This document shows, piece after piece, positions 4,001-61,283 of a stretch of 64,000 nt of DNA (the first letter of the stretch is position 1; each line of letters begins with the position of its first letter). The translations under genes and the position numbers were made by a program. The notes beneath the pieces are model-generated. The model was not told the origin of the DNA and searched no databases. It saw only the letters and a list, made by a program, of their open reading frames with translations. Source of the stretch: Dehalococcoidia bacterium (GTDB lineage: Bacteria > Chloroflexota > Dehalococcoidia > UBA2979); contig OZ253555.1 in assembly GCA_965262725.1 (NCBI GenBank), forward strand, positions 517,256 to 581,255, given 5' to 3'.

Positions 4001-5989
4001 GCTCACCGCGTACGTGAGCGTGTCGCCGCGGTCCGGGTCCGCGGCCGCGACGGGCGCACCGATAGCTGCGCCCGCGGGCGTGTTTTCCGGTACGGCGCGC
4101 TCGCCGCTCTCGCCGGGCGGGAACGTCGGCGCCTCGTTCACGTCGGTCACGGTGATGGTCACGGGCAGCTCGCTGGCCCTGCTCCCGTCGAAGGCGCGCA
4201 CGATGACTCGATAGACGTTGTCTCCGTCGGCGTCCGCCGGGAGCTCATAGTCCAGGATCTCCGCCGTCAGCAGCTGACCGGACGCCGGGACGATGTCGAA
4301 GAGCGCGGCATCGCTCCCCACCAGGCTGTAGGTCAGCGTGTCGTCGTCGGGGTCCGTGGCCGTGACCGGCGCACCGAGGGTCGCACGCGGCCCCGTGTTC
4401 TCCACCACCGAACGCGCCGCGGCGCCACCGAACGCCGGCACGCGGTTCTCGCCGACCCTGAGTATCCGGTCCCCGCCGCCGCCGTTCGACGTGGTGACAT
4501 AGAGCGCTCCGTCGGGGCCCATCATCGGGGTCCGGAGCCGGCCGTATGTCCCGTCGAGTTGCGGTACGACGACCTGGCTCACGAGGGCCCCCTCCGGGGT
4601 GAATTCGAAGAGGCGCAGCTTCTGATCCCGCAGCGTGGCCACCGCCAGACGCCCCTCCCAGATCCCCCAGTGGGCGCCCTCAAGGAAGATGCCGCCGCTG
4701 GTGGCAACGGTGGAATTCCCGGACGACCATCTGGCCTGGGCGGCGCCGGGGAACTTCACGAGGTCGGTCATGGGGACGCTCTGGTTGTAGCCGGGCACCG
4801 GATCCCATCCGTAGTTGCCGCCGGCGGCGAGCAGGTTGATCTCGTCGTCAACCGTCGGTCCGTGCTCCACCGACCACATCTGGCTGGTACCGGGACGGAG
4901 CGCCAGGCCCTGCACGTTGCGGTGGCCGTAGGTGTAGATGAGGGGTGAGGCGGGGAACGGATTCCCCGGTGCCCCGGCGCCCGTCATGGCGTCGACGCGG
5001 AGGATCTTCCCGCCGAGCGAGTTCAGGTTCTGGGGAACCGTCCCGGTTCGCGCGTCGCCGGTCGCGATCCAGAGGTAGCCCCGCGGACCGAAGCGCAGCC
5101 GGCAGCCGCCGTGGGTGCTGGCCGTGGGGATGTCTCCAACGAGGGGGTCGGCCACCCGCGTCGCCACGGCGTAGGCGGCGTCGATGGTCCAGGCGACGAC
5201 CTGCACTTCCGGACCGGTATGGCTCTGGCAGGTGTAGAAGCGCCGGTTGGTGGAGAAGCGGGGATCGACGACGATCGCCATCAGCCCGACCTCGCCCCCG
5301 ACGAACAGGTCGCTGACATCGGCGGAGATGGTCTGGACGGTGCCGTCGGGGAGGCGGCTGCTCAGCACGCCTGAGCGCTGGGTGAACAACATCGTCCCGT
5401 CGGGCGTGAAGGCGATGTCCCACGGGATGGACAGGCCCGAGACGAGCGTGGTGACGCGGATGTCGGGCGGGGAAGCCTCGAGCGTGGAGGCGCCCTGCGC
5501 GCTCTCGCCGGAAGCACTCTCGTCGCGGTAGCCGGTCCGCGTGACGCCGTGGTCGGAAGTGGCGCCGGCCTCGGGGTCTCCTCCGGTGATGCCGGCGCCA
5601 CCGCCGGGCTCTTCCCCGGGCTGTCCCGTCGTCCCCCGCAGCAGTGGGCTGACCCTGGAGTCGTCCGTGCCGGTCGACGGGCCGGGCGTGTCCGGGGCAC
5701 CGTCGGCGAGCGCCGGAGCGGCGACCGCGGTGAGCGCGGCGACGAGCAGCAGCAGGGCGACGCCGACACCCGCACGGCGCCGGGAATGCGAGAGTCGCTC
5801 TGTCGCGATCACCCCGGCTGCTCCAGCTCCGATACTCGCCCGATACAGAGAAGCGCCCCCGTCGCCCGGTCCCGCACCAGGAAGATGAAGCGCGGGCCAA
5901 CGGTCAGCGTATCCCCACCGCGCCCCCGCAGCGGGTCGCGAACGAGTCAGGCGCCGATAGAGCCGGTGCCGCCGGTCATGAAGTGACAC
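1061..5989 (-). CDS. Giant secreted multidomain protein: signal peptide, PQQ/sorbosone-dehydrogenase-like beta-propeller, multiple cadherin-like repeats, Gly-rich linker, WSDG beta-propeller-like repeats, tandem C-terminal Cys-containing domain
   Basis: 1642 aa ORF; hydrophobic signal (RRRAGVGVALLLLVAALTAVAAPALA), so the real start is probably an internal GTG near 5810. SGDH-like block (GLSIPWDIAFTPDG...YTYGHRNVQGLA). Repeated VNEAP / DPD.DTLTY cadherin-type modules. Four W(S/I)WSDG..W(I/V).D blades. C-terminal ~85-aa domain present twice. Confidence 0.85.
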   Translation of the reverse strand: MSLHDRRHRLYRRLTRSRPAAGARWGYADRWPALHLPGAGPGDGGASLYRASIGAGAAGVIATERLSHSRRRAGVGVALLLLVAALTAVAAPALADGAPDTPGPSTGTDDSRVSPLLRGTTGQPGEEPGGGAGITGGDPEAGATSDHGVTRTGYRDESASGESAQGASTLEASPPDIRVTTLVSGLSIPWDIAFTPDGTMLFTQRSGVLSSRLPDGTVQTISADVSDLFVGGEVGLMAIVVDPRFSTNRRFYTCQSHTGPEVQVVAWTIDAAYAVATRVADPLVGDIPTASTHGGCRLRFGPRGYLWIATGDARTGTVPQNLNSLGGKILRVDAMTGAGAPGNPFPASPLIYTYGHRNVQGLALRPGTSQMWSVEHGPTVDDEINLLAAGGNYGWDPVPGYNQSVPMTDLVKFPGAAQARWSSGNSTVATSGGIFLEGAHWGIWEGRLAVATLRDQKLRLFEFTPEGALVSQVVVPQLDGTYGRLRTPMMGPDGALYVTTSNGGGGDRILRVGENRVPAFGGAAARSVVENTGPRATLGAPVTATDPDDDTLTYSLVGSDAALFDIVPASGQLLTAEILDYELPADADGDNVYRVIVRAFDGSRASELPVTITVTDVNEAPTFPPGESGERAVPENTPAGAAIGAPVAAADPDRGDTLTYAVSGAGADPFEIVSTTGQLRTVHPLDYETRTSYSFFVSVSDGTDAGGHPDPATDASIAVTVRVGQVNEAPDIGGAPGITVAEGGGLFAGSFTATDPESDRIGWSLAGSDSGDLTIERGALRLRETPDYENPTDANRDNVYQVTVRASDGTSEDTLAVTVTVTNVDEAGRVLLSSLQPQVDTALTSTLADPDGVSGAITWSWERSLNRTSGWTPIGGATSRTYTPGATDLHHYLRVAASYGDREGSGKSADRVSESVRAVPVSNSAPAFPPTETRGRSVPENTPPDRDIGARVEATDPGDTLTYRLGGADAASFGIDERTGQLWTRAPLNHESRNHHTVSVTATDPSLASATIAVTITVTDVNEAPEFPSTESGVRAVPKTAEPGAHVGAPVAATDPDAGDTLVYTLSGTDAASFGIDAGTGQIVVGAGVVLDPAIRPSYAVSVTARDPSGDSDGIDVTITTGEQATAPRIAIGGGGGGGPSGPSPSILDFEWNVTRDIEELDPDNDEPTGSWSDGATLWIAENGQGADDAIYAYDVTSGERVEDREFELDETNLAPRGVWSDRSTIWISDSGQEKLFAHDLESGERTAEYALDSSNDAPHGIWSDGVTVWVSDHITKWLHAYRLPARPAAPVAEDAEPTPLERISGEEFRKLSRASNNSPRGLWSDGDVMYVADASDGRVYSYNMPDAADARLASLSLSGVDFGEFSPLRYDYASDTIPDGNIATLTAAPAQPGASVGIDPPDHDGDPENGYHVRLLPGREITITVTSPDGTRTRVYRLILGEEEAAGPAPVCLRGEVAVGFSFLTYAGGSVEDLVPCAAGRQVTALYATHDGAVVPYILGAPDFVNRSFRELYAGGLPADTPLLARSDGPSSPDTGGGRPRDEGGAEPRPECLHGVVAAGFSLVLYEGGSAAELVVCAEGRHVAALYALDDGAFVPLILGAPDFVNRSFRELYPDGLPAATPLLAKSDGPPEAGTDGGGDR
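1120..1640. repeat. Tandem direct repeat (~255 bp x2) encoding the duplicated C-terminal domain of the minus-strand giant protein
   Basis: Near-identical nucleotide blocks (gtagagctcgcggaaggatcggttcacgaagtccggcgccccgag...) occur twice in tandem; protein repeats are PVCLRGEVAVGFSFLTYAGG...FVNRSFRELY and PECLHGVVAAGFSLVLYEGG...FVNRSFRELY. Confidence 0.8.
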
Positions 5990-5990
5990 A

Positions 5991-7174
5991 TCACATCTGC
6001 GGACGCAGTTCCGGGTGCTTGAGACCCGTACCTGTGTTGAACAGCACGATCCGCTCCTCGGGCTGGATCGTTCCTCCCGCTATCAGCAGTTCGAGCCCGA
6101 CGAGCGTCGATGCGCCCTCGGGGCAGGCGTCGATCCCCTCGGTGCGGCCGAAGCGGCGCATCGCGGGCACGATCGACTCGTCGGGGATGGCGACTGCTGC
6201 GCCACCGCTCTCGCGCAGGGTGCGCAGGATCAGGTCGTCGGCGAAGGGGCGGGCACACGAATGCCGGGCGCCACCGTCGCCGCGTTGTCCCACGGCTCGG
6301 CGCGCTCGTCGCCCCTGTCCCAGGCGCGCACGATCGGTGCGCAGCCGTCGGACTGCACAACGCACATGCGAGGCCGGTCGGTGCCGATCAGCCCCATCGT
6401 CTCCAGTTCCTCGAACGCCTTCCACATCCCGATCAGCCCGGTCCCACCGCCGGTCGGATAGAGCACCACGTCCGGCAGCTCGCCATCGAGTTGCTCCCAG
6501 AGCTCGTAACCCATCGTCTTCTTGCCCTCGGTGCGGTACGGCTCCCTGAGCGTCGACATCTCGAACCAGCCGTGCTCGCGGCAGCCCTCGGCGATGAGTC
6601 GCCCGGCGTCGTTGATCAGCCCGTCGACAAGCTGGAGATCGGCGCCAAGGTTCAGCACCTCCCGGATGATCGCCGCCGGGGTGTCGACAGGCATCGCGAC
6701 GTGGGCGGTCATGCCGCTATGGGCCGCGTAGGCAGCGGCGGCGGCGCCGGCGTTGCCCGCGGTCGGTATGCCGATGTCGGTCACGCCGAGGCGCCTCGCC
6801 ATCGCCATCGCGGCGGCGAGGCCGCGCGCCTTGAACGATCCGGTCGGGTTACCGCCCTCGTCCTTTACCAGCAGATCGCTGCAACCGAGTTCCGCACCGA
6901 GCCGCGGCGCGGCAAGGAGCGGAGTCATGCCCTCGCCGAGGGACACCAAGCCCACCAGCTCGCTGGCAGGCAGTACCTCGGCGTAGCGCCACATCGAGGC
7001 CTCGCGCCCGCCCAGGGCCTCGCGTGTGAGCGTCTCCCTCGCGCCGTCGAGGTCGTAGCGCGCGAACAGAGCGCGGCCACACTGGCGACAGATCGTCTGC
7101 AGCTCGTCGCACTCGCAACGCGCGCCGCAGATGTCGATCGCCAGGGTCATTGATCCACGCGTCGCCACGGTCAT
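5991..7174 (-). pseudogene. thrC: Threonine synthase (thrC), 5'-truncated by IS21 and carrying an internal frameshift near 6260-6280
   Basis: ORF 6230..7174 carries the PLP motif GSFKARG and an N-terminal CxxCG...CxxCG zinc ribbon. The C-terminal part (FADDLILRTLRESGG...FNTGTGLK) continues in another frame (ORF 5991..6425). The first annotated Met codons lie inside the IS21 terminal repeat. Confidence 0.75.
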
Positions 7175-20245: not shown

Positions 20246-22235
20246 CTATGCGAGAGTGAGTACCGTGGCCGGATTGTCCACAGTTATCGCTTGAATCACG
20301 TCTTCCGAGAATCCCTTGCGTCGCATTCTGGGAACGATGTTCTCGAGGATGTGGCCGTGTGCGTCCGGAAGTCGAAGGGGTGGTGACGTGATGACGTGAC
20401 CGGTCCGGAGACATGCTCGTTGCTGCCAGCCGGTGAGAGTCCGGCACGGGTAACTGTCAGGAGGCCCGTTAGCAGGTCGGCGGCGTGGACGGGAAACGGT
20501 CTGCGTCGAAGCCCGACGTCAAGAGCCCTATGAGGGGGAGCAAACGTGCGGTCCGCAGCATGACGCGAAGTCTGCCGCGCCGTGAGACTCGCCTGTCTAT
20601 TGACAGGACCAAGGAGGAGCCGAGCCCGGGTGGTCAGGGCGAAGGCCATGGACGAGGTGAAGATCCTGGAATGCAGCCTCAAGAAACCTCCCGGCGTATG
20701 GGACGTGGAACGTACGGAAGGTAGCGACGGGAACCGGAGAAGCCCTCCCCGGCCCGGCACCCTGTGAGAGGGCGTCGGAGCGAGGCGTCCTATAACCGGT
20801 CAGAGCCGGGAAGTGGACAGCCAGCCGGAAGGGTGGCGGAGGGGGTCGTAGTACCGCTGGAGCCGGACGGACAACATAACCGCCGGTGATGGGAAGGACC
20901 CCTACTTTGTCCGTGCATGTTGCTGGGGGTGTGGACTGGTGAGTGCCCCTCGGGGCTAGCAACCACTTGGTAGGGTTCGAGGCTCTCCGCACATGCTGTA
21001 CCGGCTGGCCAAGGCACGACCCACGTTGTGGGGAGCGCTGCATGCCATCTGGTGAAGGGCATCGGTGAGCCGGATGAGGGAGAACCTCACGTCCGGTTCG
21101 ATGTGGCAGGGGCTGGAGACGGACGCTGCTATGGCCGTGGAGTTGGGCACCACCGGGAAACCGGCTTGGAACTGATGCGCCACCGCCTACGGCTCGCACC
21201 GCGCCAGCCCCTGACCCTACAGCCGTGTCCTCCGTATCTGACAAGTCGGTGCTTCATGCAAATGTCCTGACCGATAACGATTCTATCGGAATAGCCGGCG
21301 TCGGCGATGTACCGAATGAAGCCCAGCCTCTGGGCGTCGCTCGGCATATCGATGTCGGCGAGTGGGTAGTACGATCCTTCATTGCCGAACAGGTCCCATT
21401 CAAGGTAACAGCCTGACGCGGCAATACTCAGAAGCGTGTCGAACTCAAACACGGTTCGATCCAGATGTCCCACGATCACCCGGGACAGATCCGCGCCGCC
21501 GTATTCGAGCACCTCCAGGATCTCCAACGGTGCATCCGGATGCCGCCCTGGATGGATCAATATCGCCGCACCCGTGTCTCTCTGCGCGATTGCCGCCGCC
21601 GACAGGGACTTGCGCTCGTTTGGCGCCAGGGGCCACGTGCAGCCAATCTCCCCGATGATGCCCGCCTTGATGCCGCTGCCTCCAACGCCGTCACAGATAT
21701 CGCCGGTAATCTCCCGCGCCAGATCCTCCGCGGCCCGCTCATCCATATCTTCTGGATGGACGGCTGCGACGTAGAAGCCCGCACCCATGATGATGTGGAC
21801 GCCCGATGCACGCGATATGTGGGCCAGCGCATCCGGCGAGCGTCCCATTCCCATCGAGGTGGCGTCGACAATGGCGCCGCCTCCGGCTTCGCTGAACTTG
21901 CTGACTTCTCCTATCGTTGTGTCCACATCCATCAACTGAAGGTTGGAGCGGTTGCTGTAGTAGTTGCGCCGTATCCATCCGATGTTGTCCAGGGCTATGG
22001 GCGCATCCGCCAGCTCCTGCGACGGCGAGTCCCGGGCGGGGCGATACATGAACGAGAAGTCGATATAGAGGTGTTCATGGGTCGTCGTGGCACCCAGTTC
22101 GGACGGGGGTACAGGGCCCAGCACGGTCTGGACGAGACCCCGATTTCGTTCTGATCCCACGTCCCCACTCCCTGTAGTATCGTCGCCGGAAAGGTAGCAC
22201 GGCCCGTTTGGGGGCGTACAACCGGCGTCCGACAA
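20246..22235 (-). pseudogene. Phosphotriesterase-homology (PTE/PHP, amidohydrolase TIM-barrel) gene interrupted by an antisense group II intron
   Basis: ORF 21129..22235 (HEHL...GQDICMKHRLVRYGGHG) then runs into intron-derived sequence. The missing C-terminus (YGHILENIVPRMRRKGFSEDVIQAITVDNPATVLTLA*) is encoded at 20246-20358 beyond the intron. Confidence 0.7.
20359..21220 (+). mobile_element. ORF-less group II intron, copy A1 (862 bp)
   Basis: 5' GTGCG...3' ...CTAC; the same unit recurs at 32245-33106 and 33107-33968; about 90% identical to domains I-III and V-VI of the ORF-containing intron at 31129-34926. Confidence 0.8.
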
Positions 22236-30867: not shown

Positions 30868-31679
30868 GGCCGCCCCCGTTGGTGGACCGTTCCGTCGGGC
30901 GTCGGGCTTCGGCCGCGCCCTCGCCCGCCCGGCCTACTGGCTGATCAGCGGCTGCCCGTGGTCGCCGCCTGCCGGATTTCGCCTCGCCTGCCGGCGCTCG
31001 GACTCACATGCCCGCGCGAGAAGGTTGAAGGAGCGTCCGCCCGGGTGTGCTGTGGCGCTCCGCGGGGCGCTCTAGCTACTGCCTAGTGTCCTGAATTGGA
31101 AATGCGATTGAGATATCCGGTGAGGTTGGTGTGTCCCGAAGTCGAAGGGCGGGTGACGTGATGACGTAACCGGTCTGGAGACATGCTCGTCGTTGCCAGC
31201 CGGTGCGAGTCCGGCACGGGTAACTGTCAGGAGGCCCGTTAGCAGGTCGGCGGCGCGGACGGGAAACGGTCCACGTCGAAGCCCGACGTCAAGAGCCCTA
31301 TCAGGGGGAGCAACCAAGCGGTCCGCAGCATCAAGCGAAGCCTGCCGCGTCGTTAACGGATAGTGGAGGAGCCGAGCCCGGCAATTCAGGGCGAAGGCCA
31401 TGGACGAGGTGAAGATCCTGAATGCGCGTTGCGCTGCAGCCTCAAGGAACCTCCCGGCGTAAGGGGCGTGGAACGTTTGGAAGGTAGCGACGGGAACGGG
31501 AGAAGCCCTCCCCGGCCCGGCACCCTGCGAGATGGTGTCGGAGCGAGGTGCCCTATAACCGGTCAAAGCCGGGAAGTGGGCAGCTAGCCGGAAGGGTGAC
31601 GGAGGGGGTCGTAGTACCGCTTGAGCCGGACGGACAACACAACCGCCGGTGATGGGAAGGACCCCTGCTTTGCTCACGC

Positions 31680-34600
31680 GTGGGGAGTAGGGATGAATCG
31701 GTGAGTGCCCAAGCGGCTAACTCCATCCAAGACAAGGTCCGAACACTACAACGCACGCTTTACCGGGCGGCCAAGGCCGACCCCAATAGACGCTTTCATG
31801 CGCTCTACGACAAGGTTTATCGCAGAGACATTCTGGAGCGCGCGTGGGAGCAGGTGCGTCGCAATCGCGGCGCAGCCGGTATCGACGGCGTCACGCTCGC
31901 CGAGGTCGAGCGCTACGGCGTGGAGCGCCTGCTGGATGAACTGGCCACGGAACTGAAGGAGGGAAGCTACCGGGTGCAGCCGAGCCGCCGGGTCTGGATA
32001 CCCAAGCCCGGTCGGTCGGAAGAGCGCCCGCTCTCGATTCCTTCGGTCCGCGACCGCATCGTGCAGGCGTCGCTGAAGCTCGTGACGGAGCCGGTCTTCG
32101 AGGCCGACTTCCTGCCATGCAGCTTCGGCTTCCGCCCGAAGCGTTCGGCCCATGACGCCCTGCAGGTCCTCATTGACGAGGCGTGGCGGGGCAGGCGGTG
32201 GGTAGTGGAGACGGACATCGCCTCGTGTTTCGAGTCGATACCGCGTGCGTCCGGAAGTCGAAGGGGTGGTGACGTGATGACGTGACCGGTCCGGAGACAT
32301 GCTCGTTGCTGCCAGCCGGTGAGAGTCCGGCACGGGTAACTGTCAGGAGGCCCGTTAGCAGGTCGGCGGCGTGGACGGGAAACGGTCTGCGTCGAAGCCC
32401 GACGTCAAGAGCCCTATGAGGGGGAGCAAACGTGCGGTCCGCAGCATGACGCGAAGTCTGCCGCGCCGTGAGACTCGCCTGTCTATTGACAGGACCAAGG
32501 AGGAGCCGAGCCCGGGTGGTCAGGGCGAAGGCCATGGACGAGGTGAAGATCCTGGAATGCAGCCTCAAGAAACCTCCCGGCGTATGGGACGTGGAACGTA
32601 CGGAAGGTAGCGACGGGAACCGGAGAAGCCCTCCCCGGCCCGGCACCCTGTGAGAGGGCGTCGGAGCGAGGCGTCCTATAACCGGTCAGAGCCGGGAAGT
32701 GGACAGCCAGCCGGAAGGGTGGCGGAGGGGGTCGTAGTACCGCTGGAGCCGGACGGACAACATAACCGCCGGTGATGGGAAGGACCCCTACTTTGTCCGT
32801 GCATGTTGCTGGGGGTGTGGACTGGTGAGTGCCCCTCGGGGCTAGCAACCACTTGGTAGGGTTCGAGGCTCTCCGCACATGCTGTACCGGCTGGCCAAGG
32901 CACGACCCACGTTGTGGGGAGCGCTGCATGCCATCTGGTGAAGGGCATCGGTGAGCCGGATGAGGGAGAACCTCACGTCCGGTTCGATGTGGCAGGGGCT
33001 GGAGACGGACGCTGCTATGGCCGTGGAGTTGGGCACCACCGGGAAACCGGCTTGGAACTGATGCGCCACCGCCTACGGCTCGCACCGCGCCAGCCCCTGA
33101 CCCTACGTGCGTCCGGAAGTCGAAGGGGTGGTGACGTGATGACGTGACCGGTCCGGAGACATGCTCGTTGCTGCCAGCCGGTGAGAGTCCGGCACGGGTA
33201 ACTGTCAGGAGGCCCGTTAGCAGGTCGGCGGCGTGGACGGGAAACGGTCTGCGTCGAAGCCCGACGTCAAGAGCCCTATGAGGGGGAGCAAACGTGCGGT
33301 CCGCAGCATGACGCGAAGTCTGCCGCGCCGTGAGACTCGCCTGTCTATTGACAGGACCAAGGAGGAGCCGAGCCCGGGTGGTCAGGGCGAAGGCCATGGA
33401 CGAGGTGAAGATCCTGGAATGCAGCCTCAAGAAACCTCCCGGCGTATGGGACGTGGAACGTACGGAAGGTAGCGACGGGAACCGGAGAAGCCCTCCCCGG
33501 CCCGGCACCCTGTGAGAGGGCGTCGGAGCGAGGCGTCCTATAACCGGTCAGAGCCGGGAAGTGGACAGCCAGCCGGAAGGGTGGCGGAGGGGGTCGTAGT
33601 ACCGCTGGAGCCGGACGGACAACATAACCGCCGGTGATGGGAAGGACCCCTACTTTGTCCGTGCATGTTGCTGGGGGTGTGGACTGGTGAGTGCCCCTCG
33701 GGGCTAGCAACCACTTGGTAGGGTTCGAGGCTCTCCGCACATGCTGTACCGGCTGGCCAAGGCACGACCCACGTTGTGGGGAGCGCTGCATGCCATCTGG
33801 TGAAGGGCATCGGTGAGCCGGATGAGGGAGAACCTCACGTCCGGTTCGATGTGGCAGGGGCTGGAGACGGACGCTGCTATGGCCGTGGAGTTGGGCACCA
33901 CCGGGAAACCGGCTTGGAACTGATGCGCCACCGCCTACGGCTCGCACCGCGCCAGCCCCTGACCCTACACGACCGTCTGATGACGGCCGTCGAGGAACGG
34001 ATATGCGACCGCAATCTCCTGAAGCTGGTACGGGCGATGCTGCGTGCCGGTGTGATGGAGTCGGGGGTCGTGCAGCACAGCGCGACGGGTACGCCGCAGG
34101 GCGGGGTGATGTCCCCGCTGCTGGCCAATGTCTACCTGCACCGGTTGGACCGGGACTGGGAGGCGAAGGGTGATGGCGTGCTGGTGCGCTATGCGGATGA
34201 CCTCGTGGTGCTCTGCCGGAGCCGGGAGGAAGCGGAGCGGGCGTTGGCCCTGCTGCGTGACCTGCTGGGTGAGCTCGGACTGGAGCTCAAGGCGGAGAAG
34301 ACGCGCATCGTGCACCTGCGGGAGGGAGGCGAGGGGCTGGAGTTCCTCGGCTTCGAGCATCGCTGGGTACGTGCGAAGCGCAACAAGAATATCCAGTTCC
34401 TCGCACGCTGGCCCTCACGGCGAGCGATGCAGCGGGCGCGGGACCGCATCCGTGAAATCACGGCGCGGTTGCGTCTGCTGCTGAGTCCCCGGCAGGTCGT
34501 GGAGGAAGTCAATCGCTACCTCCGCGGCTGGATGAGCTACTTCCGCTACGGCAACTCGGCGAGGGCGTTCGACGTCCTGCACTGGTTTGCCATGTGGAGA

Positions 34601-34762: not shown

Positions 34763-34922
34763 AGGGCATCGGTGAGCCGGATGAGGGAAAACCTCACGTC
34801 CGGTTCGAGGCGGCAGGGGCTGGAGACGGACGATGCTACGGCTGTGGAGATGGGCGCCACCGGGAAACCGGCCTGGCAATATGCGCCACCGCCTACGGCT
34901 CGCACCGCGCCAGCCCCTGACC

Positions 34923-56016: not shown

Positions 56017-56045
56017 GCGGCGGGGCTTGACCGGAACAGAACACC
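56017..56045 (+). promoter_or_regulatory. Putative sigma70-type promoter for the rplI-dnaB operon
   Basis: TTGACC, 17-nt spacer, TACTAT, about 250 nt upstream of rplI. Confidence 0.3.
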
Positions 56046-56301
56046 CGTTCTACTATGCGCACACGTTGCCCCGGGGAGGAGAGGAGGATCGGCGCCGTCG
56101 GCGACCGGTGGATTGCCCGGGCAGTGGCTCGGGGCTACGCTGATCGCCGATCCACAGAGCCATCCACGCCGGTCACGATGCGGGGCATCCGATGCACCCG
56201 CCGAATGTTGACACGGCGGTGGATAAGGGAGCTTTCGGTGCCGGGGCCCCACCTACCGTGGGCTGCGTCCCGGCTCCGATATGCCGAGAGGGTGAGTCGA
56301 G

Positions 56302-56934
56302 GTGAAGGTCGTTTTTCTGGAAACCGTGGAGGGGTCCGGCACCATGGGCGAGGTGAAGACTGTCGCCAATGGATTCGCCCGGAACTTCCTGTTGCCGCGC
56401 GGCCTAGCCGCACCGGCGACCGCCGCCCTCCTCGAGCGGGCTCACGAGCTCGCCCGCGAGGAGGAGAGGCGCCAGCAGGCCCAGGACGAGAGTGCCGAGG
56501 GGCTGGCTAGCCGGCTCAGAGGGCACCCGCTCGTCATGGCCGTTCGCGTCGGCGAACAGGGGAGGCTGTACGGATCGGTTACCAGTGCCGACCTCGCCGA
56601 GAAGGCTGGGGAGATTCTCGGCGAGGAACTGGACCGCCGTCGCGTCCTCTTGCCCGAGGTGATTCGGAGCGTGGGGGTGTACTCCGTGCCGCTCCGGCTG
56701 TCACGTAACGTGATGCCGGAGGTGCAGGTGGTGGTGGTGGACGCCGAGGCGCCGGAAGGCGTTGAGGCCGCCGCCGAGGCGATGCTCCACATCGCCTCTG
56801 TGGCAGCCGATGAGGCCGAGGCCGCCGCCGACCAGGACGAGCCCTCCGTGGAGACGCCGATCGCCGACGGCGTATCGGAGCCGGGGACATCCGACGATGC
56901 CGCGCCCGCGGCGCAGGCGGGCGATTCGAGCTAA
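56302..56934 (+). CDS. rplI: 50S ribosomal protein L9 with acidic C-terminal extension
   Basis: MKVVFLETVEGSGTMGEVKTVANGFARNFLLPRGLA. Confidence 0.95.
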   Translation: MKVVFLETVEGSGTMGEVKTVANGFARNFLLPRGLAAPATAALLERAHELAREEERRQQAQDESAEGLASRLRGHPLVMAVRVGEQGRLYGSVTSADLAEKAGEILGEELDRRRVLLPEVIRSVGVYSVPLRLSRNVMPEVQVVVVDAEAPEGVEAAAEAMLHIASVAADEAEAAADQDEPSVETPIADGVSEPGTSDDAAPAAQAGDSS

Positions 56935-56937
56935 CCC

Positions 56938-58380
56938 GTGGTCACGGAGCGACGTCCGCCAGCGCTGTGGCCGGACGCAGAGACCCGCTCCGCGAGCGGG
57001 TTGCCTCCGCATGACATCGACGCCGAGGAGGCCGTGATCGCGGCGCTCCTGCTCGACGACAGCGCCTACGCCCGCGTGCTCCCGATAGTGCAGCCGGGGG
57101 ACTTCTTCCGCGAGCAGAATCGCTGGTGCTACGAGGCGGCGCAGGCGCTCGCCGGGCGCTCCGAGTCCGTCACCCTGACCACGCTGGCGCACGAGCTCGA
57201 GCGCGACGGCCGCCTCGACTCCGTGGGCGGCGAGCCCTACCTGTCTGAGATCCAGGGGAAGCACTTCACGGCGCTCGGCGTGGAGGCGCACGCGCGCATC
57301 ATCGCCCGCGACGCGCTCTATCGCCGGTTGATCCAGGCCGCGTCGCAGATCGCCCAGAGGGCCTACGACGGCGGCCCCGACGTGGCCCGCGTCCTGGTCG
57401 AGGCGGAGACACTCCTGCTCGCAGTGCGCTCGGCGGAGGCGTCGGGCGACTTCGTGCGCCTCCGCGAGCTGCTCGACCAGTTCCTGGAGGACGCCGGCGA
57501 GCAGGTCGAGGGCCAGCTCGTCGAGGGCGTGCGCTCCGGCTTCATGGATCTCGACGAGCTGCTCGGCGGCTTCAAGCGCGGCGACCTCGTCATCCTCGCG
57601 GCGCGGACCGGGGTGGGGAAGTCGGCGCTGCTCCTCAACTTCGCGCGCAACGCAGCCGTCGGGCAGCACGCGACGGTCGCGCTCTTCTCCCTCGAGATGT
57701 CGGGCGAGCAGCTCGCGGCACGGCTGCTCTCGGCCGAGGCCGGCGTGACCTCGACGCGCCTTCGTCTCGGCACGCACACCGAGCGCGAGGAGGCGTCGAT
57801 CATGCACGCGTTCGGCGTGCTCGGTGAAGCCGCCGTCTACATCGACGACTCGCCGATGCTCTCCGTCCCCGAGATCCGCGCGAAGCTCAGGCGTCTGCAG
57901 GCCGACGGCGGCCTCGACCTCGTCGTCGTCGACTACCTGCAGCTCCTGCATGGCAGCGGCCGCGCCGACACGCGCGCCGGCGAGATCAGCCAGATCTCGC
58001 GGACGCTGAAGGAGATGGCGCGCGAGCTGAAGGTGCCGGTGATCGCGGCCGCGCAGCTCTCGCGCGCGGTCGAGCAGCGCACGCCGCACATCCCGATGCT
58101 CTCCGACCTGCGCGAGTCGGGCTCCATCGAGCAGGACGCCGACGTCGTGATGTTCATTTATCGTGAGGACGTCTACATGAAGCCCGAGGAGTGGCAGCGC
58201 CAGCACCCGGAGGCGCCCGGGAGCCAGCACCCCTCCGGCCTCGCGCAGATCATCGTGGCGAAGCACCGCAACGGCCCGATGGGTTCCGTCTCAGTGCGCT
58301 TCGTCGACCGCACCGCCTCCTTCCAGGATCTGCTGCTCCGGGGGGAGGAGCCGCCTGGAGGCGGCGGTGCCGCGTGGTGA
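56938..58380 (+). CDS. dnaB: Replicative DNA helicase DnaB (no intein)
   Basis: N-terminal domain, Walker A GVGKSALLLNFA, RecA-like fold, 480 aa. Confidence 0.95.
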   Translation: MVTERRPPALWPDAETRSASGLPPHDIDAEEAVIAALLLDDSAYARVLPIVQPGDFFREQNRWCYEAAQALAGRSESVTLTTLAHELERDGRLDSVGGEPYLSEIQGKHFTALGVEAHARIIARDALYRRLIQAASQIAQRAYDGGPDVARVLVEAETLLLAVRSAEASGDFVRLRELLDQFLEDAGEQVEGQLVEGVRSGFMDLDELLGGFKRGDLVILAARTGVGKSALLLNFARNAAVGQHATVALFSLEMSGEQLAARLLSAEAGVTSTRLRLGTHTEREEASIMHAFGVLGEAAVYIDDSPMLSVPEIRAKLRRLQADGGLDLVVVDYLQLLHGSGRADTRAGEISQISRTLKEMARELKVPVIAAAQLSRAVEQRTPHIPMLSDLRESGSIEQDADVVMFIYREDVYMKPEEWQRQHPEAPGSQHPSGLAQIIVAKHRNGPMGSVSVRFVDRTASFQDLLLRGEEPPGGGGAAW

Positions 58381-59195
58381 ACGCTCGCCCCTCCCGTGCC
58401 GCCCCCGGAGGCGGCGGCGCCGCGCGGGAGGCGCGCGAGGTGCGCGGCGGGGCGGCCTCCGTCCCGCGCTTCCCGGGCTTCACGACCGGGGGTGCGACCG
58501 TCGCGCTGCCGCGCGAGCTCTTCGTCGACCTGCTGCCTGCCATTGAGGATGAGGGCGAGCTCCGCGCGACCCTCTACGCGCTGGCGGCGGCCTTGCGGCC
58601 GGGGCCCGTGCGCGGCGTGAGGCGATCGCAGCTGCTCCGGGAGCGCCCGCTCCTGCGCCAGTTCGAGCGCCTGGCGCCGGGTGAGGCTCAGGCCGGGGCC
58701 GCGGCCGCGCTCTCGCGCGCCGCAGAGCGCGGCTCGCTGCTCGCCGTCGAGCTCGGAGACGGCGATCTGCTCTACCTCATGAACTCTCAGGCCGGAGGCA
58801 GGCAGCGGGACCGCCTGCTCGCCGGCGTCCTCGCTCCGCCGCCTGCGCCGAGCGGGTGGCGGCCGGGCGCCGGGGACCGACGAGCGGCGGCCGCCGCGGC
58901 CGCGGCGGTGACGACTCCCGGCGGCGCGGCGGCGCTCTACGAGAACGAGATCGGGCTCATTACGCCCGCCGTGGCGGAGGCGCTCTCCGCGGCCGAGGCC
59001 CGGTACCCGGAGGGCTGGATCGAGGATGCCCTGCGGCTGGCGGCGCTCCACAACGCGCGGTCGTGGGCGTACGCGGAGGCGGTCCTGCGGCGCTGGGAGG
59101 TCGAGGGCCGCGGGAAGGAGGGACTCGATGCGGACTCTGAGCGAGATCCTGGGGACGACCCCTACCGACGAGTCGTCCGCCGCTCCTGGCCCTGA
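58377..59195 (+). CDS. DnaD-domain replication initiation protein
   Basis: GTG start overlapping the dnaB stop; C-terminal DDBH2-like YENEIGLITPAVAEAL...WIEDALRLAALHNARSWAYAEAVLRRWE. Confidence 0.65.
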   Translation: MNARPSRAAPGGGGAAREAREVRGGAASVPRFPGFTTGGATVALPRELFVDLLPAIEDEGELRATLYALAAALRPGPVRGVRRSQLLRERPLLRQFERLAPGEAQAGAAAALSRAAERGSLLAVELGDGDLLYLMNSQAGGRQRDRLLAGVLAPPPAPSGWRPGAGDRRAAAAAAAAVTTPGGAAALYENEIGLITPAVAEALSAAEARYPEGWIEDALRLAALHNARSWAYAEAVLRRWEVEGRGKEGLDADSERDPGDDPYRRVVRRSWP

Positions 59196-60567
59196 CCGCG
59201 CCGCCGCCGCGGAGGCCTCCGGCCCCGCCGACGTCTGCCCGTTCTGCGACGGCGCCCGCTTCGTTCGGGTGACGTCCGATACCGGACACCCCGCCTTCGG
59301 GCGCGCGCAGCCCTGCGCGTGCTCGACGCGCGAGGACGAGCGCGCCCGAAGGGAGCGGCTGCTGCGCTACTCGCGCCTCGGCGCGCTCGCCCGCCTGAGC
59401 TTCGGCACGCTGCTCGAGAGCGGTCGCGCCTCAGACCCGGTGGCGCGGGAGCGCTACCGCGGCGCCGTGGAGGCGGCGAGGCGCTACGCGGAGCGCCCCG
59501 AGGGCTGGCTCGTGCTCACCGGCGCTCCGGGCTGCGGCAAGACGCACCTCGCCGCCGCGATCGCCATGCACGCGATCGAGGCGGGGCGGCCGGCGCTCTT
59601 TCTGACCGTCGCCGACCTGCTCGATCGCCTGCGCGCCGCCTACGCCGACGACGCGGAGGTCGGCTACGACGACCTGCTCGCCGAGGTGCGCGACGCCCCG
59701 CTGCTCGTGCTCGACGATCTCGATTCCTACGCCGGCACGCCCTGGGCGCGCGAGAAGTTCTTCCAGATCGTCTCGCATCGCTTCAACGCGGTCGCGCCGA
59801 CGATCTTCACTTGCGTGAGGCCGCCGACCGAGATCGATCGGCGCCTGGCGGCGCGCCTGACCGATCCGCAGCTCTCCCAGGTCCTCGACCTCGCGCAGTC
59901 GTCTCTCCCGCGCTATGTCGCCGTGGGCGGCATGTCCGAGGAGCGCCTCGCCTCGATGACCTTCGAGAGCTTTCGACCCGCGGGCCACGGGCTCAGGGGC
60001 CAGACACGCAGCAATCTCGAGGGCGCCTTCCGGCTCGCGCACCAGTGGGCCGAGCAGCCTGACGGCTGGCTGGTCTTGCACGGCGGCCCCGGTTGCGGGA
60101 AGACGCACCTCGCCGCGGCGATCGCGAACCACCGCCTCGCCGCCGGCGACACCGTCTGCTTCGCGACCGTCCCGGACCTGCTCGACGAGCTGCGCGCGGG
60201 CTACGCGCCCGAGGCGGACAAGAGCTTCGACGAGCTCTTCCGCCGGCTGCTCGACGTGACGCTGCTCGCGCTCGACGACCTGGGCGCGCACCACTCGAGC
60301 CCCTGGGCTGAGGAGAAGCTCTACCAGCTCCTGAACCACCGCTACCTCGGCCGCATGGCGACGGTCGTAACCCGCAACAGCGATCCCGCCGCCCAGGCCC
60401 CCGCCGAGCCGCGCCGCGGGCGCGGCCGGCGCACCGCCGCCGGCGGCGGTGCCGAGCGCGAGGGCGGGGACCTCGAGCCGCGCATCCGCTCCCGGCTCGC
60501 CGACCTGCAGGTCGCAACGAACTACGAGATCCTGGCTCCCGACTACCGCGTGGGCGGCGTGAGCTGA
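59128..60567 (+). CDS. DnaI/DnaC-like helicase loader with N-terminal zinc-binding region and two tandem AAA+ modules
   Basis: CPFCDGARF...C.C; Walker A GAPGCGKTHLAAAIA and again GGPGCGKTHLAAAIA; Walker B LLVLDDLD and LLALDDLG. Confidence 0.8.
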   Translation: MRTLSEILGTTPTDESSAAPGPDRAAAAEASGPADVCPFCDGARFVRVTSDTGHPAFGRAQPCACSTREDERARRERLLRYSRLGALARLSFGTLLESGRASDPVARERYRGAVEAARRYAERPEGWLVLTGAPGCGKTHLAAAIAMHAIEAGRPALFLTVADLLDRLRAAYADDAEVGYDDLLAEVRDAPLLVLDDLDSYAGTPWAREKFFQIVSHRFNAVAPTIFTCVRPPTEIDRRLAARLTDPQLSQVLDLAQSSLPRYVAVGGMSEERLASMTFESFRPAGHGLRGQTRSNLEGAFRLAHQWAEQPDGWLVLHGGPGCGKTHLAAAIANHRLAAGDTVCFATVPDLLDELRAGYAPEADKSFDELFRRLLDVTLLALDDLGAHHSSPWAEEKLYQLLNHRYLGRMATVVTRNSDPAAQAPAEPRRGRGRRTAAGGGAEREGGDLEPRIRSRLADLQVATNYEILAPDYRVGGVS

Positions 60568-60581
60568 GGGGAGCGCGCCGC

Positions 60582-61283
60582 CTACGGGCGGGCGGGCGTC
60601 CCCTGCTGCCAGAGGGATCCCCCGGGACCCCATTCCCGCTTCCAGATCGGCGCCGTCTCCTTCACGCGGTCGACGAGACGGGCCGCGGCCCGGAACGCCT
60701 CCTCGCGGTGAGCGGCCGACACCGCCGCCACGATCGCCGGCTCGCCGACGGCGAGCGTGCCGATCCGGTGGTGCACCGCGACGCCGTGCAGCGGGCATCC
60801 GGCGGCCTCCGCCTCTGCGCGCACCTCCTCGATCAGGCGCGCGATCTCGCGCTCGGCCATCTCGGAGTATGCCTCGTACTCCAGCCGCTCGACGGCACGC
60901 CCCTCGTGGTGATCACGCACGACGCCCTCGAAGACCACCACCGCGCCCGAGGCGTCGGTGCGGACGAGGTCGCGGAGCGCCCGCGCGTCGAGTGGCTCGG
61001 GGGTCACGAGCACGGCGGGCGGCATTGCGCCCGGAGCGCCGCCCGCGACCGGGGGAATCAGGGCGACGCGATCGCCGTCGTGGAGCACGAGGGCCCCGTC
61101 CCGTGCGTACTCCTCATTGACTGCGATCGCGACCCCATCCAGGTGGGGCCGGAGGGCCGGGTAGCGCTCGGCGAGGCGGGCCCGGAGCTCCTCGAGCGGC
61201 ACCGTCGTCGCGTCGAAGACCTCGACCACCTCGGCGCCGGCGAGCTCGCGCAACGCGGCGAAGAGCCGGATGGTGACGTGCAC
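60582..61283 (-). CDS. moaDE: Molybdopterin synthase MoaD-MoaE fusion protein
   Basis: N-terminal ThiS/MoaD fold ending IPPVAGG followed by a MoaE catalytic domain. Confidence 0.85.
   Translation of the reverse strand: MHVTIRLFAALRELAGAEVVEVFDATTVPLEELRARLAERYPALRPHLDGVAIAVNEEYARDGALVLHDGDRVALIPPVAGGAPGAMPPAVLVTPEPLDARALRDLVRTDASGAVVVFEGVVRDHHEGRAVERLEYEAYSEMAEREIARLIEEVRAEAEAAGCPLHGVAVHHRIGTLAVGEPAIVAAVSAAHREEAFRAAARLVDRVKETAPIWKREWGPGGSLWQQGTPARP

Follow-up and report, generated by a model that had tools for sequence, protein, structure and literature searches.

A locus in the genome of a Dehalococcoidia bacterium (Chloroflexota, GTDB lineage UBA2979) raises the question of what becomes of a helicase loader when two AAA+ modules are built into a single polypeptide chain, and whether these two modules are equivalent. 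The window, i.e. the whole stretch of DNA that was analysed, comprises 64,000 nucleotides (nt) of contig OZ253555.1 (assembly GCA_965262725.1, positions 517,256 to 581,255 of the forward strand), and all coordinates given here count from its first letter. Downstream of the genes for the replicative helicase DnaB and for a DnaD-domain protein, it encodes a protein, hereafter called the loader, in which an N-terminal cysteine cluster is followed by two AAA+ modules of the DnaC/DnaI clade. This double architecture is conserved in relatives, the motifs are distributed asymmetrically between the modules, and the gene is syntenic with dnaB and dnaD. The protein is very likely a replicative helicase loader, and with a probability of about 0.6 it is the resident DnaB loader of a Dehalococcoidia-type lineage of Chloroflexota, with an asymmetric loader dimer hard-wired into one chain. 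Helicase loading as such is an ordinary function; the design is uncommon, mechanistically informative, and widely shared beyond this genome. It bears on a debated issue, namely how loaders of the DnaC/DnaI type use six ATP sites and why DnaI forms three non-equivalent dimers on the helicase. Fused protomers, of which one has an ATP site stripped of its cis sensors, represent a natural evolutionary experiment on ATP-site use.

The loader, its modules and their motifs are located as follows (aa, amino acids; HMM, hidden Markov model).

59128 to 60567, plus strand: open reading frame (ORF) of the tandem-AAA+ helicase loader, 479 aa and a stop codon
59341 to 59895, plus strand: module 1, aa 72-256, linker and AAA+ core; 275 bits with the module HMM; aligns to DnaC of E. 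coli and Aquifex
59896 to 60564, plus strand: module 2, aa 257-479, linker, AAA+ core and APDYR tail; 291 bits with the module HMM
59521 to 59544, plus strand: Walker A of module 1, GAPGCGKT, aa 132-139 with K138
60082 to 60105, plus strand: Walker A of module 2, GGPGCGKT, aa 319-326 with K325
59701 to 59718, plus strand: Walker B of module 1, LLVLDD, aa 192-197 with D196 and D197
60262 to 60279, plus strand: Walker B of module 2, LLALDD, aa 379-384 with D383 and D384
59809 to 59817, plus strand: sensor I position of module 1, T-C-V, with V230
60370 to 60378, plus strand: sensor I of module 2, T-R-N, with N417
59842 to 59856, plus strand: R-x3-R of module 1, R239 and R243
60481 to 60495, plus strand: R-x3-R of module 2, R452 and R456
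60535 to 60549, plus strand: sensor II of module 2, APDYR, with R474

The original prediction had described a single 480-aa ORF with an internal tandem duplication of the loader domain, each of the two ATPase cores having its own Walker A and Walker B motif. Apart from the length, for which the stop codon had been counted, this description was confirmed. Modules 1 and 2 are 43% identical over 159 aa (BLASTP, E=5e-43), the four Walker motifs lie at the positions listed above, and two modules are present in 244 of 289 collected relatives. Module 2 aligns to DnaI of G. kaustophilus (2w58).

Residue roles were transferred from E. coli DnaC, in which Walker A (K112), Walker B (E170), sensor I (N203), the Arg-coupler (R216), the Arg-finger (R220), and sensor II (R237) have been characterized together with a tetrad contacting single-stranded DNA (ssDNA) that consists of K143, F146, S177, and Y179 (PMC8213410). 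The ATPase activity of DnaC depends on each of Walker A, Walker B, sensor I, the Arg finger, and sensor II, and is abolished when any of them is lost (PMC8213410). Alignments to the PDB chains 6qel, 3ec2, and 2w58 were made with phmmer. In those with 6qel and 3ec2, V230 of module 1 is found where E. coli DnaC has N203. N417 of module 2 corresponds to the Asn of the 'TSN' motif in DnaI 2w58, and the equivalent Asn of the homologue P0010 aligns with DnaC N203. The R-x3-R motifs of both modules were assigned to the Arg-coupler R216 and the Arg-finger R220 because of the motif itself and its spacing to sensor II, which is 18 residues in module 2 and 17 in DnaC. All four of these arginines are invariant in an alignment of 78 homologues (A1), as are P471, D472, and R474 of the APDYR tail, the last of which was assigned to R237 of E. 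coli DnaC ('DSYR'). Module 1 has no sensor II equivalent, its last strand being followed directly by the module 2 linker. The equivalents of the ssDNA tetrad are R169, Y172, T204, and W206 in module 1 and R356, Y359, S391, and W393 in module 2.

Judged by these motifs, module 2 is the canonical copy with all five of them, and module 1 is a sensor-degenerate copy. The two modules had initially been regarded as both complete, which holds for module 2 with its sensor I (N417), Arg finger (R452/R456), and APDYR elements all in place, but not for module 1, which has neither the sensor I Asn nor the sensor II Arg motif. A further suggestion, that a degenerate regulatory copy might be involved, was correct in that one copy is degenerate in its cis sensors. 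Here the affected copy is the first module and not the second, and it still has its P-loop and Walker B as well as its Arg finger and DNA-contact residues.

Homologues were sought among 5.8 billion proteins and, in addition, by an exhaustive search of representatives at 50% identity. Motifs were counted in 230 two-module proteins, in 111 diverse proteins, and in 93 cluster representatives at 50% identity. The Walker A Lys is conserved in 230/230 relatives for module 1 and in 229/230 for module 2, and the Arg finger equivalents of R243 and R456 are found in 222/230 and 225/230, respectively. Among the 111 diverse proteins, the values for modules 1 and 2 are 100% and 99% for the Walker A Lys, 100% and 97% for the first Asp of Walker B, and 93% and 95% for the Arg finger, and in the 93 representatives every position of the ssDNA tetrad has a conservation of 84-98% in either module. 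The sensor II motif D[YFH]R has a different distribution: 215 of the 230 proteins have it in exactly one module, 3 have it twice, once per module, and 12 lack it altogether. It is confined to module 2, as in the loader described here, in about 40 of the 93 representatives (type A) and to module 1 in about 38 (type B). In type B proteins, module 1 has a canonical TTN sensor I and module 2 has a decayed end, e.g., APMYKG or APSYPG. The sensor I Asn is essentially absent from module 1 throughout the clade of the loader. A complementary retention of this Asn across the family was considered and not adopted, as both modules have it in 3 of 111 proteins against about 6 expected under independence, a difference not significant when taken alone. 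The claim of a family-wide asymmetry therefore rests on sensor II, for which the signal is clear.

The search of the 5.8 billion proteins retrieved hundreds of full-length relatives of 404-485 aa with 56-85% identity, and those that carry a name are labelled 'Dehalococcoidia bacterium' or 'Chloroflexi bacterium'. At E<=1e-30, 510 clusters at 50% identity were obtained, and two-module proteins were found down to about 30% identity. Modules were counted with a single-module HMM, and most one-module matches among the 289 proteins are fragments. A profile built from distant members again retrieved solely names of Chloroflexota or Dehalococcoidales. For synteny, contigs from one genome per species were sampled and 39 loci were recovered, all labelled as Chloroflexota lineages with the exception of one metagenome-assembled genome labelled Acidimicrobiia; one locus (L039) contains merely the 3' end of the loader gene, leaving 38 usable loci. 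The rplI-dnaB-DnaD-loader order, which had been regarded as unusual for a genome with 70% GC, is the normal arrangement in this Chloroflexota/Dehalococcoidia lineage.

A resident dnaC/dnaI-type gene in Chloroflexi has been reported before (Brezellec 2016, PMC5109545). According to that survey, one PF01695 protein and no DciA is present in nearly every complete Chloroflexi proteome tabulated, with three PF01695 proteins in Herpetosiphon, and dna[CI] in Chloroflexi is counted as one 'domestication' event (PMC5109545). This gene presumably belongs to the same lineage as the loader. The survey makes no mention of a tandem or asymmetric architecture (PMC5109545), and a search of full-text literature, where absence is not proof, turned up no account of a DnaC/DnaI-type loader with such a design. 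The tandem asymmetric design thus appears to be undescribed.

Family profiles place the loader in the DnaC/IstB clade. It matches PF01695 (IstB_IS21) in two stretches with 116.2 bits (cutoff 24.1) and PHROG 50 ('DnaC-like helicase loader'), likewise in two stretches, with 258 bits. For the NCBIfam family PRK08116 (uncharacterised DnaC-like), 192.9 bits exceed the cutoff of 189, and this membership is marginal because the score sums two module matches. The loader scores below the cutoffs of the equivalog families tested, i.e., 86.9 bits for DnaI (NF006505, cutoff 228), 111.1 bits for DnaC (NF005931, cutoff 357), and 144.2 bits for the IS21 helper IstB (NF038214, IS21_help_AAA, cutoff 200). The best sequence matches in the PDB are DnaC of E. 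coli and Aquifex (E of about 1e-11 to 1e-14), DnaI of G. kaustophilus, and IstB. An AlphaFold2 (AF2) model computed from alignment A1 has a mean predicted local distance difference test score (pLDDT) of 86.6 and contains two AAA+ cores with an alpha/beta fold. In both cores, two helices are inserted between strands 2 and 3, as is characteristic of the initiator/loader clade. In Foldseek searches against the PDB, single modules match IstB 8q3w (TMt 0.59, the best value) and DnaI 2w58. Matches of the whole chain to p97, NVL, and NSF reach TM values of 0.24-0.42 at root-mean-square deviations of 9-20 Å. This poor superposition indicates that the modules are not arranged as the stacked D1-D2 of the p97/NSF type. 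p97/Cdc48, NSF, and NVL also have two AAA+ modules per chain, but they belong to a different AAA+ clade and form stacked rings. In NSF and p97, the two rings differ in hydrolytic competence.

The closest known systems are single-module loaders. DnaC (6QEL, 6QEM, 3ECC) has Walker A and B, sensor I, R-x3-R, the sensor II 'xYR', and the ssDNA tetrad in common with the loader. In contrast, it has no zinc ribbon and acts as six identical single-module copies with six N-terminal docking helices on the DnaB hexamer, whereas one in two modules of the loader is devoid of both sensor I and sensor II. DnaI of Bacillus and Geobacillus (2W58, 4M4W) resembles the loader in that an N-terminal zinc-binding region, which in DnaI interacts with the helicase, precedes an AAA+ domain of the DnaC/IstB clade with a 'DD' Walker B, and in that it is partnered with a DnaD-family protein, but each of its chains has a single AAA+ module. 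On the helicase, DnaI is present as three dimers that are not equivalent (PMC3791466), which is the arrangement that a tandem loader would hard-wire. IstB (5BQ5, 8Q3W) belongs to the same PF01695 family; it is a single-module protein that assembles into decamers on duplex DNA and whose gene adjoins that of the transposase IstA, whereas the loader is found in the context of dnaB with no transposase. The Arg of the Arg-coupler is absent from IstB (PMC8213410) and present in the loader.

The N-terminal region of the loader contains the following element.

59236 to 59322, plus strand: four-Cys zinc-ribbon-like element CPFC-x22-CAC, aa 37-65

The cysteines have the spacing C37-x2-C40-x22-C63-x-C65 and are invariant in the 78 homologues of A1 as well as in a diverse alignment of 21 sequences, and the AF2 model has a small beta-hairpin at residues 45-47 and 60-62. 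The presence of a cysteine cluster had been predicted correctly, but its description as being 'as in DnaI' did not hold. DnaI_N (PF07319) has no match in the loader at E<=0.01, and a profile of the region retrieved no significant Pfam or PDB family and, in particular, no DnaI-N chain in the PDB. The DnaI_N fold has three Cys and one His and is not detectably related to the CxxC-x22-CxC of the loader. The CxxCxGxG knuckle resembles those of DnaJ and UvrA at the motif level only. The putative zinc ribbon of the loader is therefore at most an analogue of DnaI_N.

The family also includes proteins with other module numbers. P0006 (827 aa; L041, 6001-8484) consists of one zinc ribbon and four DnaC-type modules, which are 38-65% mutually identical and all have intact Walker A, Walker B, and R-x3-R motifs; its gene is located directly 3' of an intein-containing dnaB and a DnaD-domain gene. 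P0121 (792 aa), the gene of which is on a contig of short length, has three or more modules. P0264 (536 aa; L122, 3947-5557, and L123, 5001-6611), from another lineage, has the same zinc ribbon and one canonical module preceded by an N-terminal extension of about 300 aa that is of low complexity and rich in Pro, Ala, and Gln, and its gene adjoins a DnaD-domain gene and a gene for a 1304-aa DnaB carrying two inteins. The type B member P0164 is encoded in a dnaB-DnaD-loader operon with overlapping genes. Thus, the same operon houses loaders with a single module, with two modules in either order, and with four, a series with which rules of stoichiometry could be tested.

In a neighbour-joining (NJ) tree, the canonical modules of types A and B group with single-module proteins, and the sensor-less modules are placed on separate, longer branches. 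The anatomy of the junction differs between type A and type B as well. Taken together, tree and junctions are suggestive of independent or rearranged duplications, with an NJ tree on about 144 columns and with long branches not being decisive; mean identities between modules are uninformative as to one versus two duplications. The asymmetric-dimer design may accordingly have arisen more than once, with the degenerate module being the first in one subfamily and the second in the other. A phage origin of the tandem form was considered and rejected. Among the 80 matches kept from a scan of viral contigs, there was no fused tandem; DnaC-like genes there encode single modules, and IMG/VR contig 3300044658_000141 (L042) has two separate, adjacent DnaC-like ORFs at 4644-5603 (319 aa) and 5631-6191 (186 aa), an arrangement corresponding to the tandem in unfused form.

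From these features, the following mode of action can be proposed for an asymmetric loader dimer. The zinc ribbon would dock on DnaB, and modules 1 and 2 would form adjacent, non-equivalent protomers of a DnaC/DnaI-type spiral. Three loader chains per DnaB hexamer, a stoichiometry derived by reasoning, would provide six AAA+ modules and three docking domains. All six modules would bind ATP and ssDNA, and the Arg fingers would make head-to-tail contacts within and between chains. The conservation of both P-loops and both Arg fingers points to such a continuing head-to-tail oligomer and not to an isolated dimer. Every second ATP site, i.e., that of module 2, would be competent for hydrolysis. 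It is possible, at odds slightly short of even, that the sensor-less site of module 1 binds ATP for assembly and that the complete site of module 2 is responsible for hydrolysis and release. More tentatively, Chloroflexota could have exchanged a loader of six identical subunits for an obligate asymmetric covalent dimer, three chains of which would form a pseudo-hexameric spiral with alternating complete and sensor-less sites. With such a design, three hydrolytic sites should suffice, as should three docking domains, and the tandem loader would allow site-specific mutants to be studied without mixing of subunits.

Several points weigh against this proposal. The family is known here from its sequences and an AF2 model. 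The pTM (predicted template modelling score) of this model is just 0.65. Docking of the zinc ribbon on DnaB as a helicase-interaction domain is presumed by analogy. The four modules of P0006 do not divide evenly into a six-module spiral, so a plain rule of six divided by n cannot explain everything. An ungapped phmmer alignment places the second Arg of R-x3-R at DnaC R216 and not at R220, a shift of four residues. In addition, the sensor I position is variable throughout the family and often occupied by Ser, Asp, or Thr, with which it is possibly still functional, these residues being able to serve as sensor I in other AAA+ proteins. This last point would also suit a plain covalent dimer, in which both modules hydrolyse ATP equivalently and the fusion fixes the stoichiometry or raises the local concentration, as would the presence of the Walker A Lys, the Walker B Asp-Asp, the Arg finger, and the DNA-contact residues in both modules at over 85%. 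Such a symmetric dimer is unlikely, as it leaves the restriction of sensor II to a single module per chain in 215 of 230 proteins, the non-polar Val that module 1 has in place of the sensor I Asn, and the longer, separate branches of the sensor-less modules unaccounted for, and since the exchanges N203A and R237D each abolish the ATPase of DnaC (PMC8213410).

The asymmetric degeneration of one module and the tight coupling of the loader gene to the dnaD-like gene, with which it overlaps by 68 nt, would also fit an auto-inhibited loader. In such a protein, the two modules would be paired in cis, so that neither oligomers nor contacts with DNA could form before the pair is opened by DnaB or by the DnaD-like protein. 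How the AAA+ activity of loaders is regulated is an active topic for S. aureus DnaI (PMC4887207). This explanation, including a variant in which module 1 is a regulatory pseudo-protomer outside the spiral, is less probable still, since the degenerate module retains its ssDNA tetrad and Arg finger at over 90%, which would be unexpected for a purely inhibitory decoy. The names of the matching families, with IstB_IS21 as the best Pfam name, 144 bits for NF038214, and matches to phage DnaC-like families, could point to an ATPase of a mobile element or phage, i.e., an IS21 helper or a prophage replication gene. The neighbouring genes are purL, rplI, dnaB, moaDE, and glyA, with no IstA transposase or phage genes nearby; together with the NF038214 score below its cutoff of 200, the synteny with dnaB conserved over 38 genomes, and the viral contigs devoid of a fused tandem, this makes a mobile-element protein very improbable. 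An anti-phage defence function was also considered and rejected on context, PADLOC having given generic P-loop matches only (best DrmD, 61 bits). Finally, the separate DnaC-like ORFs on one viral contig might raise the suspicion that two adjacent genes were joined by a sequencing error. This concern, voiced in the original prediction as well, is close to negligible: the frame is continuous, the junction sequence is conserved, and the same fused protein, an architecture common to the relatives, is found in hundreds of independent assemblies from different sources. An asymmetric loader dimer remains the preferred reading.

The start and the C-terminal half of the loader gene contain two further elements.

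59115 to 59121, plus strand: Shine-Dalgarno sequence AAGGAGG, 6 nt before the loader ATG, read from the sequence
60382 to 60459, plus strand: 26-aa low-complexity insert DPAAQAPAEPRRGRGRRTAAGGGAER, aa 419-444 of module 2, between sensor I and the Arg-finger helix

The reading frame has no interruption between 59026, where there is an in-frame ATG, and the stop codon ending at 60567. The ATG at 59128 is the likely start, given the AAGGAGG 6 nt upstream and the conservation of the N-terminus in homologues covering the whole query; the upstream ATG at 59026 is without a ribosome-binding site. The nearly invariant M269 was considered as an additional start within the gene and rejected, as 'gccgtgggcggcATG' upstream of it has no Shine-Dalgarno sequence. 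The public gene call P0001 (NCBI and ENA sources) is 100% identical and comprises 432 aa with GTG 59269 as the start, so that 47 residues are omitted, among them C37 and C40, both of which are invariant. Many relatives are listed with 404-416 aa at 90-92% coverage, and the late start looks like a systematic error across the clade. Public product names of the relatives are ATP-binding protein or DnaC. For the loader, public annotation thus has a start that is too late, has lost the zinc-binding CxxC, and gives the name just as 'ATP-binding protein'. The insert at aa 419-444 is rich in Arg, Gly, and Ala, its columns are gapped in at least 90% of 118 aligned sequences, and the AF2 model has pLDDT values of 55-65 across it. 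It is lineage-specific and may have originated from GC-rich slippage or expansion.

The genes upstream of the loader are the following.

56302 to 56934, plus strand: rplI, ribosomal protein L9, 210 aa; Pfam Ribosomal_L9_N and Ribosomal_L9_C
56938 to 58380, plus strand: dnaB, replicative DNA helicase, 480 aa; TIGR00665 with 470 bits (cutoff 385), Pfam DnaB and DnaB_C
58440 to 59195, plus strand: DnaD-domain gene, 251 aa from GTG 58440

The original prediction had placed the loader beside dnaB and a DnaD-domain gene in the order rplI-dnaB-DnaD, which is borne out by the matches to TIGR00665 and TIGR01446 and by the 38 loci. The apparent head of the operon is rplI, the product of which has an acidic C-terminal extension of low complexity, and DnaB is the presumed client of the loader. 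The DnaD-domain gene, for which the public call of 273 aa starts at GTG 58374, encodes an N-terminal winged-helix-like domain and a probable C-terminal DnaD/DnaB_2 domain. Its scores are close to the cutoffs, with 25.3 for TIGR01446 (just over 24.95) and 21.9 for PF07261 (just under 22). A precomputed PF07261 match exists in 20 of 22 DnaD-like orthologues (45-80% identity) and in the near-identical public call P0408, and PHROG 186 ('DnaD-like helicase loader') matches the gene with E=5e-7. The AF2 model of the DnaD-like protein has a pLDDT of 79.9 and gave weak, generic winged-helix matches with E>0.06 in Foldseek searches against the PDB.

The 3' end of the dnaD-like gene overlaps the start of the loader gene by 68 nt (59128-59195) in a different frame. 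In L001, L003, and L004, which are the closest loci, the overlap amounts to about 65 nt, and it is similar in the distant operons L126 and L123, which suggests translational coupling. A single sigma70-like promoter match was found between 55300 and 61400, where 0.1 would be expected by chance; it is located at 56027-56056 on the plus strand, about 250 nt before rplI, a position compatible with transcription of rplI, dnaB, dnaD, and the loader gene as one unit. The sequence 3' of the loader showed no pattern of an intrinsic terminator. The loader is probably co-transcribed with rplI, dnaB, and the dnaD-like gene and translationally coupled. As far as the contigs reach, all 38 loci have the order (purL)-rplI-dnaB-dnaD-like-loader, with a moaD-moaE fusion converging on the loader from the other side. 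Synteny with dnaB holds for loader homologues down to 54% identity, and the dnaB-dnaD-loader linkage is also found in distant members (L040, L041, L123, and L126). In the window, the moaD (ThiS-like)-moaE fusion is a 233-aa ORF at 60582-61283 on the minus strand, convergent on the loader with a gap of 14 nt.

Elsewhere in the window, Rfam family RF02003 (group II intron D1-D4) has four full-length matches on the plus strand, at 20427-20563, 31197-31333, 32313-32449, and 33175-33311, three of which share the identical score of 102.8 bits. RF00029 (group II intron domain V/VI) matches at 34772-34839 on the plus strand. Five intron matches within about 14 kb on one strand suggest repeated or nested 5' segments of group II introns.

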